In this document: in pieces, positions 1-8,174 of the stretch
Numbering within the stretch: position 1 is the first letter of the stretch
Layout: each line of letters opens with the position of its first letter
Assembly: GCA_041740355.1 (NCBI GenBank)
Contig: JBGSMD010000039.1
Span: forward strand, 53,411-117,410
Direction: 5' to 3'
DNA length: 64,000 nucleotides
Source: Bdellovibrionota bacterium
GTDB taxonomy: Bacteria; Bdellovibrionota_C; UBA2361; CALJRW01
Position numbers and translations under genes: made by a program
The notes under the pieces: generated by a model
Database searches by the model: none
Told to the model about the DNA's origin: nothing
The model's input: the letters and a program-made list of their open reading frames with translations, nothing else

Positions 1-545
1 TGTTGGCTCATAATAAATTCATCCCGAATCCAAAACAAATCTTCATCTCGCTGTGAAGTTAAATCTCGCAGTGGATTTAATCCAGCATGCGCCACGATAA
101 ATTTATCGTAACAAACAATCTTTCTTAAATTTTGAAAGAACTCAATGTGATTTGGGGGAAACTTGGCAAAGATTTCATTAACATCATCTTTTTGATCAAA
201 TCCATAACTAATTAATGTTTGGGCTCCCCCATTTCTAATAAAATTAGCTCCGAATGTCCCGCCTAGTCCCATGAAATCTAAAAACATATCTTCATGATTT
301 CCCTTTAGAAACTTAGTATTTGGAAAATCTTTGGCAAAATCGATTAAAAAATTTACCAGTGAGCAAGATTCATAGCCACGATCAATATAATCCCCAACAA
401 AGACAACTTGATCTGACTGATTTAAAGTTTGTTTTTTCTGAAGATGATCTAATAAGCTAGCTGTCTCTGATAATGTGCCATGAAGATCTCCAACAACAAA
501 AAGTCTTCCTTCATATGTTTCAATTTTACTTACTTGATCATTCAC
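1..545 (-). CDS. Ser/Thr protein phosphatase-like metallophosphoesterase (partial, runs off window start)
   Basis: Manual translation from GTG at 545 (GAAAGG RBS upstream) shows GDLHG, VFVGDYIDRG, LRGNHE and THAG motifs. Confidence 0.85.
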   Translation of the reverse strand, partial: MNDQVSKIETYEGRLFVVGDLHGTLSETASLLDHLQKKQTLNQSDQVVFVGDYIDRGYESCSLVNFLIDFAKDFPNTKFLKGNHEDMFLDFMGLGGTFGANFIRNGGAQTLISYGFDQKDDVNEIFAKFPPNHIEFFQNLRKIVCYDKFIVAHAGLNPLRDLTSQRDEDLFWIRDEFIMSQ

Positions 546-609
546 AATAATTACCTTTCATCTGGACAGAGCTAGGGCAGATTAATACACTACTTTAAAT
601 TAATCTAGA

Positions 610-2415
610 CTATTCCTCATTCAACCTTAAAACAGCTAGAAATGCCTCCTGCGGAATCTCCACTTTACCGACACTCTTCATCCGTTTTTTACCTTTTTTC
701 TGCTTGTCCAACAATTTACGCTTTCGACTAATGTCACCGCCATAGCACTTTGCTGTTACATTTTTACGTAATGCTTTAACCGTACTTCGAGCAATAATCT
801 TAGCTCCGATGGCAGCTTGGATTGCAACATCAAACATCTGTCGATCAATAATTTCTTCCAATTTTTCAGTAAGAATTTTTCCTCGGTGAAATGCTTGATC
901 CCGGTGAATAATAATTGATAAGGCATCAACATTTTCCCCATTAAGCTTAATATCAAGCTTAACAAGATTATCTTGGCGATAGCTCTTAACTTCATAATCA
1001 AATGAAGCATAACCACGAGTTCGACTCTTAACACGATCATGAAAATCTAAGATTACTTCACTAAGTGGTAATTCATAAACTAAAACAGCACGAGTCTCAC
1101 CAAAAAAATCCATACTAATTTGAATTCCACGCTTTTCTTCGCAGAGTTTAATTAGATTACCTAAATATTCCTTAGGCGAGTGAATTGTAACATGAGCAAT
1201 AGGTTCTTCAATAAAATCAATATCTCCTGGATCGGGCATCTTAATCGGAGTATCGACATTAATGACTGTTCCGTCATTATGTCTTACTCGGTAAACAACA
1301 CTTGGCGCCGTTGTAATTAGATCTAATAAAAATTCACGCTCTAATCGCTCTTGAATAATTTCCATGTGCAAGAGTCCGAGATATCCACAACGAAAACCAA
1401 ATCCTAAAGCAACAGAACTCTCTGGTTCAAAAGTAAAAGAGGCATCATTTAAACTAAGTTTTTCAAGCGCCGTTCTTAAGCTTTCATAATCAGCAGCATC
1501 AATCGGAAAAAGTCCACCAAAAACCATTGGCTTAACTTCTTTATATCCAGGTAATGCTTCCACTTCAGCTTTTGCAAATGTAACGGTGTCTCCAATCTTT
1601 ACATCATGTAGATCTTTGATTGAGGCTGATAAGTAACCAACTTCGCCGGAAGATAGACTAGCAACTTCTTTAGCATGCGGAGTGAACATCCCAAGTTTAT
1701 AAACTTCGTATTCCGCACCGGTTTGAATAAATTTAATTTTATCACCCTTTTTGATTGCCCCATCAAAAACTCGTACTTGAATTAAGACACCAAGATAGGA
1801 ATCAAACCATGAATCATAAACTAGAGCTCTTAGTGGTGCATTAACATCCCCTCGAGTTGGAGGTGGGACTCTTTTAACAATAGCTTCCAACATTTCTTCA
1901 ATCCCGATTCCAGTTTTACCACTTACATGTAGGGCTTCACTGGCATCGATTCCGATCACATTCTCAATTTCTTCAGCAACACGATCAGGATCCGCACTAT
2001 TTAAATCAATTTTGTTAAGTGCTGGAATAATTTCTAAATTATTATCAATTGCTAAGTAAACATTGGCCAAAGTTTGCGCTTCTACACCTTGAGTAGCATC
2101 AACAACTAACAATGCTCCCTCACAGGCAGAGAGACTTCGGGAAACTTCATAACTAAAATCAACGTGCCCAGGAGTATCAATTAAGTTCAAACGGTAAGTA
2201 ATTCCATCTTTCGCTGGATAATTAATACAAACTGTTTGAGCTTTAATAGTAATCCCACGCTCTCTCTCAATATCCATTTTATCTAAAAATTGAGATTGCA
2301 TTTCCCTAGAAGTTAGCGCTTTGGTAAATTCCAAAATTCGATCAGCGAGTGTCGACTTACCATGGTCGATGTGGGCTATGATACTGAAGTTACGTATTAG
2401 TGATTTATTGTACAT
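610..2415 (-). CDS. lepA: Elongation factor 4 (translational GTPase)
   Basis: [31 protein letters not shown] and the LepA C-terminal [19 protein letters not shown]. Confidence 0.98.
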
Positions 2416-2521
2416 ACTACTAGGAAAAAAATGCTGTTTGCTCGTTTAAGCGTTTGAAATTTTTACAAAAAATTTCATCGGCAATGATACTGAAGTTACG
2501 AATGAGACTCTTATTATACAT
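2378..2521 (-). mobile_element. Integration scar or micro-element at the lepA 5' end (att-like 17-bp direct repeat plus duplicated first 14 codons)
   Basis: ATGATACTGAAGTTACG occurs at 2378-2394 and 2484-2500. The upstream copy encodes [14 protein letters not shown] with only synonymous differences, as part of a 33-aa uORF at 2521-2420. Confidence 0.7.
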
Positions 2522-2602
2522 ATGGGTACAAAACTATATTCTTGGCATTTAAAGCATTTCAAGTTAACGAGTGCGAAATGATATCACAACTAGTAATTTA
2601 GT

Positions 2603-2726
2603 GTAAGCTTTCAAGTTTATTCGAGTTCTAGGAAGAAGGTTCTTCTCAAGCGCAGCTGTACTTGGAGTACAGCGAGCATTGAGAGGGTTCTTCTGACGTC
2701 GAAATCGGATAAAATTGAAAGCTTAC
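2603..2726. repeat. 124-bp imperfect palindromic repeat (RPE/REP-like) overlapping the galE-like stop codon
   Basis: Ends GTAAGCTTTCAAGTTTATTCGA and TCGGATAAAATTGAAAGCTTAC are near-complementary; central stem GCTGTAC-ttgga-GTACAGC. Confidence 0.7.
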
Positions 2727-3643
2727 TGATGACTGGCAAACCACTGATAAGTGTCTTGAAGTCCGGAGGCTAAATCTAATTTTGGAGACCAGCCCAGTAA
2801 TTCTTTAGCTCTTGTGGAGGTAATTACACTGCGTTCCTGATCCCCTGCTCTTTGAGGCCCATAACTGGCTGGAATATTAAAGTTACCAGCTTTTATAATT
2901 TGCTGGTAAAGTTCATTTACTGAAGTTTCAATTCCAGTGCCAATATTGAAAGTATTAGTTATCCGTTGCTCTATAACAGATTCAATTGCCGAAACAACAT
3001 CTAAGACATTCACATAATCTCTAGTAAATTTACCTGTGCCATTTATTGTTGGAATTTCACCACTAAGTAACTTCTTCAAAAATATTGCTACAACTCCAGC
3101 TTCACCATGAGGATTTTGTCGAGGTCCATAAACATTAGCTAAGCGCAAAACTGCATACTTGAGTCCATAAACTCTCTGCCAAAGTGCTAAGTATTGCTCC
3201 ACCACTGCTTTTGACTGACCATAAACACTTGTTGGTCGTAAAGCATGATCTTCTGGTGCAGGAAAAACATCTTGTTCTCCATATAGAGCACCACCAGTGG
3301 AAATAAAAACAAAGAAAGGAAAATTATGTTTATCTAAGGCATTCAGTAAGTTTACAGTACCTTGCACATTGACTTTCACATCATGCAAAGGATCTTTCAT
3401 GCTATCACTTACGGACATCTGAGCAGCTGTGTGAATAATAATATCTGGCTTAAAATACTTTATGGTATGAGCCGCTTCGGCATCGCAAATATCTTGTTGG
3501 AAAAACTGTGCCCGATCAGACAAATTATCAAGTGACCCGCTAGACAGATCGTCAATCACTGCAACTTCAAAGTTTTTTGCAACTAAACGATCCACTACAT
3601 GCGAACCAATAAACCCTGCTCCTCCAGTAACTAATGCTCTCAT
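2723..3643 (-). CDS. NAD-dependent epimerase, UDP-glucose 4-epimerase family
   Basis: [28 protein letters not shown]. Confidence 0.9.
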   Translation of the reverse strand: MRALVTGGAGFIGSHVVDRLVAKNFEVAVIDDLSSGSLDNLSDRAQFFQQDICDAEAAHTIKYFKPDIIIHTAAQMSVSDSMKDPLHDVKVNVQGTVNLLNALDKHNFPFFVFISTGGALYGEQDVFPAPEDHALRPTSVYGQSKAVVEQYLALWQRVYGLKYAVLRLANVYGPRQNPHGEAGVVAIFLKKLLSGEIPTINGTGKFTRDYVNVLDVVSAIESVIEQRITNTFNIGTGIETSVNELYQQIIKAGNFNIPASYGPQRAGDQERSVITSTRAKELLGWSPKLDLASGLQDTYQWFASHQ

Positions 3644-4572
3644 TACATTCTTGCTTTAAAATCACTAATTGTTTTGCCTAATCCGGTTTCTAAATTAATA
3701 ACTGGCTCCCAAGCAAGTTCACTCTTAGCTAAACTAATATCAGGCTTACGACGCATTGGGTCATTCACTCGAAAATCTTGATAAACAAGTTCGGACTTGC
3801 TTTCGGTCATAGCAATTACTTGCTGAGCTAATTCTAAAATAGTCATCTCCTTAGGATTTCCTAAATTCACAGGTCCACTAAAACCATCTTTATTCATCGT
3901 CGCAATAATTCCATTTACTAAATCACTACAGTAACAAAAAGACCTAGTCTGCGATCCATCACCATGAATTTCAATTTTTTCATTATTAAGCGCTTTCACA
4001 ATAAAATTAGAAACTACTCGACCATCATCAAATAACATCCGTGGACCATAAGTATTAAAAATACGAATAATTTTGGCATCTACACCATTATGAATTCGGT
4101 AATCATTAGTTAATGTTTCCGCCACACGCTTCCCTTCATCATAACAACTTCTTGGACCAACTGTATTTACATTTCCATAATATGATTCACGTTGAGGGTG
4201 CTCTAGCGGATCGCCATAAACTTCAGAGGTCGAAGCCATTAAAAATTTTGCGCCAACGCGCTTGGCAAGTCCCAACATATTGATCGTCCCAATTACACTA
4301 GTTTTAATAGTCTTAATTGGGTTGTATTGATAATGAACAGGTGATGCTGGACAGGCCATGTGATAAATCTCATCAACTTCTAGCAAAATTGGCAATGTTA
4401 CATCATGACGAATAAATTCAAATTTAGAGCTTTTTTCAGCATCAACTAAATTTATTTTTCTTCCCGTAAATAGGTTATCCAAAGCTAGTACTTCATGACC
4501 TTGCGATAAAAGCTGATCACATAAGTGTGAACCAATAAAACCGGCTCCACCGGTAACTAGTATTCTTGACAT
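3643..4572 (-). CDS. UDP-glucuronate decarboxylase (UDP-xylose synthase)
   Basis: [43 protein letters not shown]. Confidence 0.92.
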
Positions 4573-4576
4573 TGAA

Positions 4577-5902
4577 TTAAACTCCTAAAACTGTTGCGCG
4601 ACCGATAGAATGATATGTTAAACCAAAATTGGCAACCATCTCGGGATCAAATAAATTTCTGCCGTCAAACATCACTTTGTCTTTAACCTTACTTGCTATT
4701 ATCTTAAAATCCGGATTACGAAATTCGTTCCATTCAGTACATACAATTAAGGCATCAACATTTTCTAATGCTTGATAACTTTGCTCAAAATAGCTGATGG
4801 CATCGTTTTGCCCAAAGTATTCAGGGAATGTTTTTAGTGCTTCCGGATCGTATGCTTGAATCTTAGCTCCACGACCAATAAGTTCACGACAAATTGTTTG
4901 GGCAGGAGCTTCTCGCACATCATCTGTCTGTGGTTTGAAAGCTAAGCCCCAAACAGCGAATGTCTTGCCACAGATTTTTTCATTACCATAGTGACTTAAG
5001 ATTTTTTTAATAATCAACTGCTTTTGTAAATAATTCACATCCTCCACCGCCGTAGCAATTTTAAGATCCACTCCATTATCCTTAGCAGTTCTAACTAAAG
5101 CCTGAACATCTTTTGGAAAACAAGAGCCCCCGTAACCAATACCTGGAAAAAGAAAGCTCATCCCAATTCGAGCATCTGTTCCCATGCCAAGTCTAACTTT
5201 AGTAACATCAGCGCCAACTTTTTCGCAAAGCAGAGAAATCTCATTCATAAATGAGATTCGCGTTGCTAACATGGCATTGGCGGCATACTTAGTCATTTCA
5301 GCGGAAGCAACATCCATGAAAATTATTGGATTGTTAGTTCTAACAAAAGGAGCATAAAGCTCTTTCATGATTTTAGTAGCTCGCTCACTTTCCACGCCGA
5401 CTACAACTCGGTCAGGCTTTAAAAAATCATCAAGTGCAGCTCCTTCCTTAAGAAACTCAGGATTAGAGACAACATCAAATTCTTGATCACTGTATTCCGC
5501 AATTACAGCTTTAACTTTGGCCGCAGTTCCAACTGGTACCGTTGATTTATCAACAATAACTTTATATCCATTAAGATTCTTCCCAATTCCTTCCGCAACT
5601 TTTAGAACATGTTGTAAATCAGCCGCACCATCTTCATCTTGTGGCGTACCAACAGCGACAAATATTACGGTAGAATCTTCAACGCCTTTTTTTAGATTAC
5701 TTGTAAAAGTTAAACGCTTTTTACCAATATTCCTAGCTAATAAATCACTTAGTCCTGGCTCATAAATTGGACATTCGCCATTATTCAATTTGGCAATTTT
5801 ATCTTCATTGATATCAACACCGATAACCTGATTACCATGCTCCGCAAAACAAGCAGCAGCGACTAAACCAACATATCCACTTCCGATAACACAAATATTC
5901 AC
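4577..5902 (-). CDS. ugd: UDP-glucose 6-dehydrogenase (probable GTG start at 5902)
   Basis: [34 protein letters not shown]. Confidence 0.95.
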
Positions 5903-6184
5903 GGGCCCCCCAAAGTAGTTCGAATAAATCAGCAAAATCAATCGCTTACTGATTTTTTCTAAACCGTAATAAATCTTTGTTAATTTATTACACTTTTTTA
6001 CAGATAGTGGCTAGTAGTCTGCTTTTTTGTCTTTGACTGCTAATTATTGGTTTTTCTAGCATATCTCAATTTAGTTTATTCCCCATTTTTTAAATTTTAA
6101 GAACAACTAAAAGCCACTATTTTCGATTCACAAGTGCAAATTAAGTAACTCCATTATTGAATAATAGATACGGAATAAACTATA

Positions 6185-6538
6185 ATGAAATTTAAAGAGA
6201 TGATAAAGCTAATTGAAGCAGATGGTTGGATTTTAGTAAGAACAAAAGGTAGTCATCAGCAATTTAAACATCCAGTTAAAAATGGAATTGTGACTGTTGC
6301 TGGTAAAGGTATTTCCGAGATTGCACCAGGAACATTATAGTGAGTCCAAAAAATAAATTACTTTAAAAGACTATCGACTTTGCTTGGACTCACTATTTAT
6401 GTTGTTTTTAGCTATGCAAACTTGGATAAAACCAAGATTTGCATTAGCCGTAATGACTCTGTTCAATTTACTAACGTAAATTGTCTTGTCTTTACTATAA
6501 ACAGCATACTTAAACAAGCAGGACTGAAAAATGATTAA
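6185..6538 (+). pseudogene. hicA: HicA mRNA interferase toxin interrupted by a MITE
   Basis: MKFKEMIKLIEADGWILVRTKGSHQQFKHP...APGTL, then the insertion, then NSILKQAGLKND*; directly upstream of and overlapping hicB. Confidence 0.9.
6338..6497 (+). mobile_element. 160-bp MITE with TA target duplication (copy 1)
   Basis: TA at 6336-37 and 6498-99; ends TAGTGAGTCC...GTCTTTACTA; close copies at 36417 and 63866; removing it restores the hicA ORF. Confidence 0.9.
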
Positions 6539-6752
6539 AAAATATTTAGTAATTATTGAAGAAACAAACACCGGATATTCCGCTTATTGCCCTGATTTAC
6601 CAGGATGCATTGCCACTGGAAAGACTAATCGAGAAGTTGAAAAAAACATGACCGAAGCAATTGAATTTCATTTAAAAGGTTTAATAAACAATGGTTTCAG
6701 AATTCCTATACCTAAGAGTTACTCAACCTATCATGAAGTTAAAGCAGCCTAA
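6531..6752 (+). CDS. hicB: HicB family antitoxin
   Basis: YSAYCPDLPGCIATGKT...EAIEFHL. Confidence 0.9.
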   Translation: MIKKYLVIIEETNTGYSAYCPDLPGCIATGKTNREVEKNMTEAIEFHLKGLINNGFRIPIPKSYSTYHEVKAA

Positions 6753-6770
6753 AATCAAATGACCTAATCA

Positions 6771-8174
6771 CTAATAAGCATTTTTATTGATTAGACCCTT
6801 AAAAAAGGTCATGAGTAAAATCTTAATATCAAAAAATAGCGACCAATTGGTAATGTAGTAGAGATCAAATTCTATCCGCTTATCAATGGAAGTGTTGCCT
6901 CTCCAACCATTAACTTGTGCCCATCCAGTGATTCCCGCAGGAACTTTATGACGAAGCATATAATTAGGAATCTTATGGCGAAAATCCGAGATATAAACTG
7001 GACGTTCCGGCCTTGGCCCAACTAAGGACATGTCCCCTCGAAAAACGTTAAACAACTGAGGAAATTCATCCAAACTAGTAGAACGTAAAATTTTACCGAT
7101 CCAAGTTACTCGACAATCGTTTTTTGTTGTCCAGCCAGGACCTTCCTGTTCGGCATCAAACGTCATGGTCCTAAATTTATAAATATTGAAGGTCTTGCCA
7201 TCAAGACTAGCTCGCTCTTGCTTGTAAAATACGGGACCACGAGAAGAATATTTAACTATAATAGCAATAAGCAAAAATAGCGGAGAAAGTATAAGTAAAC
7301 CAATAAATGAAGAAACTAGATCAAAGAATCTTTTTGCTTGAAGATTAATCCCATTTAAAGGTGAATCTTGAATGTTAATAACAGGCAAACCTTCAAACTC
7401 TTCAATTGACCCACCGACGCTAACAAAGCGATAAATGTCCGGAATAATTTTAATATCCACTAAAGAATCACCAGTTCGTTCTAATATCTCAGTAAGCAAA
7501 TAATGATCTTCTAGTGGTAGTGCTATCACGATTTGATCAATTGCTTTCTCTTCCAAGAGGCGATCTAAATCATAGTAAGAACCTAAAACAGGCATCCCCC
7601 ACGGTCCCTTTTCCTCAGTCCCAGTTTTAGATATACATCCAATTAATTGAATTCCTAGCTCACGGTGCAACCTAACTCGACTAGCAATATCAGCTGCTAC
7701 CTGACCAGCACCTACAATTAACATGTAACGTAAGTTGTAGCCTTTACGGCGAACTTCTCGCAGGAAAAACCTTAAGAATAATCTTTCTGCAATTGAAAAA
7801 ATTGTTGCTGCGACCCCAAAGTAAATAAAAACTAACCTAGAAAAGGCAATTTCCTTTTCTTTTAATAAAAATGTTAGTGCTATTAAAATCAATACTGCAA
7901 CTAAATTGGCATTAATCAACAACAGTATTTCTTTTGTGCGACGAACACCCCGCATCGGCTTATACAGTCCGGTTCGTTTATATACCGTTGCCCAAATTAC
8001 CCAAATATATACCATCATGAATAAATATTCAGTGAAGGATGGTAATCCATAATATACTGGGACCCAGCCACTATGGAAGCGGAGCCAAAAAGCAAAAATC
8101 CACGCGATGCTAATGACGATCAAATCGGCAATTACATAAAGGATCTCAAAAAATTGTCTTTTTTGCTTAAGCAT
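6771..8174 (-). CDS. Undecaprenyl-phosphate glucose phosphotransferase (WcaJ-like)
   Basis: N-terminal TM helices, KRFFD, YKFRTM, DEFPQLFNV, MSLVGPRPE, GITGWAQ. Confidence 0.93.
   Translation of the reverse strand: MLKQKRQFFEILYVIADLIVISIAWIFAFWLRFHSGWVPVYYGLPSFTEYLFMMVYIWVIWATVYKRTGLYKPMRGVRRTKEILLLINANLVAVLILIALTFLLKEKEIAFSRLVFIYFGVAATIFSIAERLFLRFFLREVRRKGYNLRYMLIVGAGQVAADIASRVRLHRELGIQLIGCISKTGTEEKGPWGMPVLGSYYDLDRLLEEKAIDQIVIALPLEDHYLLTEILERTGDSLVDIKIIPDIYRFVSVGGSIEEFEGLPVINIQDSPLNGINLQAKRFFDLVSSFIGLLILSPLFLLIAIIVKYSSRGPVFYKQERASLDGKTFNIYKFRTMTFDAEQEGPGWTTKNDCRVTWIGKILRSTSLDEFPQLFNVFRGDMSLVGPRPERPVYISDFRHKIPNYMLRHKVPAGITGWAQVNGWRGNTSIDKRIEFDLYYITNWSLFFDIKILLMTFFKGLINKNAY

Follow-up and report, generated by a model that had tools for sequence, protein, structure and literature searches.

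The lepA gene, which encodes the conserved translation factor EF4, is a described target of integrative elements. Gifsy-1 inserts into lepA and leaves the gene functional (PMC4632033), it excises at a site inside the first 123 bp of lepA (PMC13090387), and in Salmonella enterica the gene is a hotspot for integration (PMC3603311). A related outcome is described for islands at dusA, which replace the 5' end of their target gene and leave a remnant of that 5' end behind (PMC4482086). To see how such systems compare with a far smaller case, we analyzed the start of lepA in a 64,000-nucleotide (nt) stretch of DNA, referred to here as the window, from a Bdellovibrionota bacterium (assembly GCA_041740355.1, contig JBGSMD010000039.1, positions 53,411 to 117,410). 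In this window, the first 14 codons of the real gene (copy R) are preceded by a truncated, silently different duplicate of themselves (copy U; Table 1). We consider it probable, at roughly 60%, that the pair represents the left and right attachment (att) sites, attL and attR, of an integrative element that targeted the 5' end of lepA and was later deleted down to 64 nt.

The two copies form a direct repeat of 43 nt (2374-2416 and 2480-2522, 81% identity) with a spacing of 106 nt, and the similarity runs from one base before the ATG through codon 14, as would be anticipated for a mimic of coding sequence. Both encode the identical 14-residue peptide, whose genus-specific beginning is MYNKSL, while eight bases in six codons differ between them. 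A sequence-only reading of the window had described this duplicate, and our comparison agrees in every particular: 8/8 differences are silent, including the Ser5 codon, which is TCA in one copy and AGT in the other. Random placement of eight substitutions left the peptide unchanged in ~5e-6 of cases (200,000 trials), and 25 of the 117 single changes possible in codons 2-14 are synonymous. The proportion of differing codons, 6 of 13, can be compared with the 41% of 451 same-residue codons that differ between this genome's lepA and that of its congener. Because the differences are synonymous only, and at the divergence level of lepA between congeners, the codons make the copies look like two functional lepA starts, each from a different species in a single genus, and unlike a duplicate that decayed in place. 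The duplicate is a real observation and lies well above chance.

We also checked the duplicate for assembly artifacts, using the assembled contigs of four runs; contigs drop rare forms. In a second sample from the same study, contigs identical to the window were found over 2258-2408 and 2394-2642. The latter, of 249 nt, spans copy U, the full 64-nt interior, and 21 bases specific to copy R, which answers the concern, raised in the sequence-only reading, that the structure might be a chimera. The duplicate structure is not an assembly artifact. For run X1, a possible source of the assembly, no piece was listed over 2394-2964, a hole that proves nothing.

Table 1. Features around the lepA start, in window coordinates.
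Feature	Coordinates	Strand	Basis and remarks
lepA (EF4), intact, 601 aa	610..2415	minus	Open reading frame (ORF) list; lepA match in 37/41 related genomes
Copy R, codons 1-14 of the real lepA	2374..2415	minus	Repeat and codon comparison; attR in the scar model, with the first 21 nt supplied by the element
Copy U, truncated and synonymously different lepA codons 1-14	2480..2521	minus	Repeat and codon comparison; attL and native start in the scar model
17-nt identical block, copy R	2378..2394	minus	Candidate crossover region; run length not beyond chance
17-nt identical block, copy U	2484..2500	minus	Repeat comparison
64-nt interior between the copies	2416..2479	minus	In the scar model, the whole remainder of the element; absent from the congener
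Upstream ORF (uORF), 33 codons: truncated lepA start plus 19 unrelated codons	2420..2521	minus	ORF list; no Pfam family
A+T-only hairpin, 10-bp stem, 3-nt loop	2455..2477	minus	Starts 3 nt past copy U; no terminator score
Sigma-70-like promoter candidate, TTGAAA-N18-TATAGT	2533..2562	minus	Consensus match only, 10/12 positions
NAD-dependent epimerase/dehydratase gene, ancestral upstream operon partner of lepA	2723..3643	minus	Pfam PF01370, E = 2.6e-54
124-nt imperfect palindrome overlapping the epimerase stop codon	2603..2726	.	Fold energy -49.7 kcal/mol, z = -8.07

To describe the anatomy of elements known to reside at this target, IMG/VR viral contigs were searched with two pattern scans, one for each arginine codon family, with 63 and 66 loci found, respectively. 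The loci of the first scan comprise 29 that read on into lepA, 23 truncated starts, two interrupted by a contig end, and nine chance matches. The second scan gave 37 full starts, five truncated ones, and 24 others, so that 28 truncated lepA starts were collected in total. The truncated copies from the first scan stop a few codons past a conserved 10-residue stretch. In all 22 of them that have downstream DNA, the end of the copy is followed on the same strand by an integrase ORF of 357-450 aa, which begins 124-392 nt past the Ile codon. Each of these 22 ORFs carries the Pfam domain Phage_integrase; 21 combine Arm-DNA-bind_3, Phage_int_M, and Phage_integrase, a type of integrase labelled P4-type, while one has the last two domains only. 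Five viral contigs of 52-83 kb have a truncated copy close to one of their ends and the real lepA close to the opposite end, with the same polarity as in our window. Within the 30 nt coding for the 10-residue stretch, these five pairs differ at 5, 5, 3, 2, and 6 positions, with no non-synonymous change among them. A silently recoded truncated lepA start is the standard mark of lepA-targeting proviruses.

Several observations on these reference elements were made along the way. Proviruses that target lepA are common in IMG/VR, and in several of them the phage-supplied N-terminal residues are not the same as the host's. One locus, L089, was considered as a truncated start stopping after IIA and was ruled out, being a chance match inside a 489-aa phage ORF. 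A tblastn search of the LepA N-terminus against phage records returned mostly host DNA inside the records. In each of 5426 complete E. coli genomes (5426 of 5426), the lepA-start mimic of enterobacterial phages has a single match, at the genome's own lepA start, with a length of 62 nt and 87% identity in most rows among the matches listed. The enterobacterial-type lepA element appears integrated at lepA in none of these 5426 genomes.

The locus in our window shares several features with these proviruses. The same stretch of the target gene is involved, a truncated start stands upstream and the full gene downstream, the truncated copy is a short ORF that soon stops, and the differences between the copies are synonymous only, as in 5/5 of the reference pairs. 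The sizes are very different, with 50-80 kb between the copies in proviruses and 64 nt here, and the host is an uncultured Bdellovibrionota-like bacterium. The dusA islands (PMC4482086) resemble the locus in that the 5' end of a housekeeping gene is replaced by carried sequence and a remnant stays upstream, but they have another target gene and another integrase family, and are full-size elements or phage remnants as opposed to a 106-bp unit. The sequence-only reading had already pointed to Gifsy-1 when it named the lepA 5' end as an integrase target, and the three reports cited at the outset bear this out.

The proposed sequence of events would begin with an integrative element, for which our model is a tyrosine-integrase phage or island, carrying a surrogate lepA start that recombined at the 5' end of the host gene. 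The host's original start, copy U, would thereby have been stranded upstream as a truncated ORF, together with its promoter, while the surrogate start (the first 21 nt of copy R and the bases preceding it) would have been fused to the rest of lepA. A later deletion would then have taken nearly the whole element, leaving 64 nt. Under this model, each start evolved as a functional lepA start in its own lineage of the genus, so that exclusively synonymous differences would be expected. It was observed that the codons of copy U are more typical of the genome (summed ln ratio of -2.23 for R against U), which weakly fits copy U as the native one. We infer the integrase origin of this pair, the identity of the native copy, the deletion, the promoter, and the expression coupling discussed below. 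Among three options that had been put forward in the sequence-only reading, namely a deletion scar, a minimal mobile unit, and a domesticated leader, the deletion scar fits best. The best explanation is that an element of a known kind, at a known kind of target, has been reduced to an extreme remnant; it is not a new kind of system.

The surroundings of the duplicate have also changed relative to the nearest relative. In the congener, the epimerase stop codon lies 8 nt before the lepA ATG, while this genome has ~300 extra bases there. An ORF of 310-342 aa ends at most 30 nt from the lepA start in 18 of the 39 loci examined in the order, and because this adjacency recurs across the order, we regard the compact operon as the old state and the arrangement in this genome as derived. 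Read in the direction of lepA, the extra DNA consists of the 124-nt palindrome, ~80 nt with the promoter-like site, copy U, and the 64-nt interior. Pieces at 96-98% identity were seen in runs X3 and X4, which belong to two other studies: one covers 2530-2680 with 3 differences, and the other, a 213-nt contig of X4, covers 2600-2803 with 8 differences. Close relatives elsewhere therefore carry at least the palindrome and promoter part.

We then evaluated the relatives for other occupied or empty sites. The peptide pattern RNFSIIA, in back-translated form, was used to scan 91 genomes from the order and 124 from the phylum, and it matched lepA once in 88/91 and 118/124, respectively. A second match was found in four genomes; those in G033, G045, and G081 were ruled out as lepA starts. 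This genome is the only one among the 124 of the phylum with two lepA-start matches on one contig, and the duplicate lepA start is the only case among them. The invariant Ser11 of lepA (IRNFSIIA) is encoded by AGY in most genomes of the order and by TCN in other orders of the class, while in at least six genomes of the order codon 11 is Cys (TGY), which looks like a switch of serine codon family with a Cys intermediate. No paper describing a minimal att scar at lepA, or elements that target lepA in Bdellovibrio-like bacteria, was found in a literature search that did not cover subscription journals.

A number of results weigh against the deletion scar. All 28 reference truncated copies run through the residues AHI, while the similarity here ends after IIA at Ala14, three codons earlier, and in the three of the five provirus pairs that were examined for this, the longest identical runs include the AHI codons; a different site specificity must therefore be assumed. 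The congener is missing the whole ~300 bp, including the palindrome and the promoter-like site, and not just the 106-bp unit, so that although it has a single lepA start, a separate, earlier insertion of palindrome and promoter must be assumed. Just before copy R stands TAG TAGT, which is similar to the junction in the congener (TAG TAATCAAA) and suggests that copy R is either native or an element's mimic copied from a host with a compact junction; the enterobacterial mimic does include upstream context, its match to E. coli beginning 21 nt ahead of the ATG. The distance to the congener, 9 and 10 differences for the two copies, does not separate them. The 17-nt block shared by both copies, which the sequence-only reading had presented as an identical core, is present and occurs only those two times in the 3.27-Mb, 74-contig assembly, but its special status is not borne out: given that 6 of 13 codons differ, a run of five unchanged codons has P = 196/1716 = 0.11.

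The searches for the element itself point the same way. Neither a full element, nor an integrase beside lepA, nor a clean empty site of the kind that the sequence-only reading had suggested looking for was found among the 124 phylum genomes. In metagenome contigs, the back-translated 14-aa pattern and a 28-nt piece of the palindrome each gave 0 matches, and a scan of a genome collection with the 14-aa peptide pattern returned the congener and no further relative. Proviruses have their integrase 124-392 nt past the truncated copy in 22/22 cases and none is present here; the integrase of one reference provirus, L069, has no match in this genome, and none of the six tyrosine-recombinase matches in the genome adjoins lepA. 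The interpretation of the repeats as attL and attR is thus backed by provirus anatomy with silent-only differences, and is left without an integrase, an element, or an empty site, and with a similarity that ends at Ala14. A tyrosine recombinase gene with a nearby fragment was observed on the lepA contig itself, at C39:28983-31169, ~25 kb before the start of the window.

Much of this contrary evidence would be accommodated if copy U were part of a recombination patch from another species of the genus, with copy R and the 64 nt native and no integrase involved. The foreign piece would comprise the 3' end of the epimerase gene, the palindrome, the promoter, and 14 lepA codons, joined by homology on the epimerase side and by an illegitimate joint before lepA, a mechanism known as homology-facilitated illegitimate recombination. 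Such a patch accounts equally for a purely synonymous, species-level divergence, derives the whole ~300-bp insert from one event, fits the resemblance of the bases before copy R to the congener junction, attaches no special meaning to the 17-nt block, and does not call for an integrase, none having been found. We nevertheless consider it unlikely, though it survives better than any other rival. The foreign piece must end by chance in the short stretch of a 1.8-kb gene that provirus integrases use, it is copy U and not copy R that better fits the codon usage of the genome, and no known relative has a 64-nt spacer after the epimerase gene, the congener having 8 nt.

Other results bear on how lepA is now expressed. 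The sequence-only reading had described a 33-aa uORF stopping just short of lepA after a T7 run, along with a hairpin and a TTGAAA-N18-TATAGT site, and all of these are present in the sequence. The uORF stop codon, TAG at 2420-2422, is 4 nt before the lepA ATG and follows the T7 run at 2425-2431, while the hairpin arms at 2455-2464 and 2468-2477 are fully complementary over 10 bp. The -10 box of the promoter-like site ends 11 nt before the copy-U ATG; three such sites were counted in the 500 nt scanned compared to 1.4 expected in shuffles, which makes the site weak evidence alone. Transcription of lepA probably starts from this site today. The mRNA would then have almost no leader, with the 33-codon relic as its first ORF, and ribosomes may reach lepA by termination-reinitiation, as they would have done after the epimerase gene in the ancestral operon. 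The real ATG was also correctly described as having no visible Shine-Dalgarno (SD) sequence, but this does not favor reinitiation. SD-like motifs precede 14.9% of the 1824 long ORFs in the whole genome compared to 10.3% in an in-gene control, and since a missing SD is therefore normal in this genome, it is no argument for reinitiation. Translation start largely without an SD seems to be the habit of this lineage.

These features would acquire a function if the relic were now a working leader, with the uORF translated, EF4 synthesized through termination-reinitiation 4 nt further on, and selection keeping the uORF open. The position of the -10 box relative to the uORF ATG, a frame that stays open for 33 codons and closes directly before lepA, the lack of any non-synonymous change in copy U, and an ancestral layout in which a stop also falls a few nucleotides before lepA (18/39 loci) are all consistent with such a role. 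Several results make it improbable, however. The leader fold over 2380-2535 is not more structured than shuffles (z = +0.68), the terminator scan of 2300-2800 returned none, and an Rfam search of window positions 1-8000 at E up to 1 gave no match. As an SD is missing from most gene starts in this genome, lepA has no need of a helper. The uORF is absent from the 123 other genomes of the phylum, and the intactness of the frame would follow simply from the event being recent. Reinitiation coupling is possible, and no result here requires it. More specifically, the stranded lepA start may have been put to use, with uORF termination delivering ribosomes to the EF4 start in replacement of the lost epimerase coupling, which we rate as doubtful and marginally below a working leader in general. 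If it were true, a dead att site would make the synthesis of EF4 depend on ongoing translation. We also considered a gene-60-like bypass, in which ribosomes would hop between the Ala14 codons, from copy U to copy R, and rejected it by reasoning, as the take-off codon is not followed by a stop and lepA has a normal ATG.

A different class of element, the cis-mobilizable elements (CIMEs), retains attL and attR after loss of the integration and transfer genes (PMC5704250). The locus here would share that definition only if its repeats are att sites. On such a basis, the 106-bp unit could be viewed as still active and non-autonomous, excised and reinserted in trans by a related integrase, with both repeats intact and in direct orientation. 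Typical CIMEs are kilobases long, occupy tRNA-gene or protein-gene 3' ends in Firmicutes, and are moved by a helper, whereas the unit here has no cargo and a 5'-end target. It is single-copy in the genome, with no second copy of the 64-nt interior and only the two known copies of the core, and it occurs in 0/123 other genomes of the phylum. No joint skipping the unit was observed among the contigs of the four runs, which drop rare forms, and no cognate integrase was found. The 64 nt would also leave little room for arm-type binding sites. Taken together, these results make an active unit very improbable. Least credible of all is a local tandem duplication with neutral decay, or an assembly artifact: the repeats are short and close together, but the all-synonymous outcome is disfavored under neutral decay (the ~5e-6 given above), the TCA/AGT switch needs several steps, and a contig assembled from an independent sample is identical over copy U, the interior, and the arm specific to copy R.

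Under the deletion-scar reading, the locus offers a quantified footprint of a departed element that targeted a 5' end: a truncated start whose differences from the functional gene start are all silent. This signature is the rule for lepA-targeting proviruses in the IMG/VR survey, and it can therefore serve to recognize former integrations after the integrase has been lost, also in lineages that, like this one, have no known temperate elements at lepA. Such scars may rewire the leader of a conserved translation factor gene.

Finally, we examined the palindrome between the epimerase gene and the promoter-like site, which supplies the epimerase stop codon. The arms, of 26 nt each, show 88% complementarity. 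A second copy of full length was not found in the genome; a centre of ~33 nt recurs on contigs C5, C6, C13, C26, C38, C51, C63, and C69. In its stop codon and recurring centre, the palindrome resembles small hairpin mobile elements that rewrite gene ends; the lepA-start duplicate differs from these, being single-copy and outside any repeat family. The palindrome is likely a hairpin repeat element or an insulator, and looks like a hairpin family similar to repetitive extragenic palindromes (REP) or miniature inverted-repeat transposable elements (MITEs). On at least eight other contigs, the ~33-nt central hairpin was observed inside longer hairpins that are otherwise unrelated.

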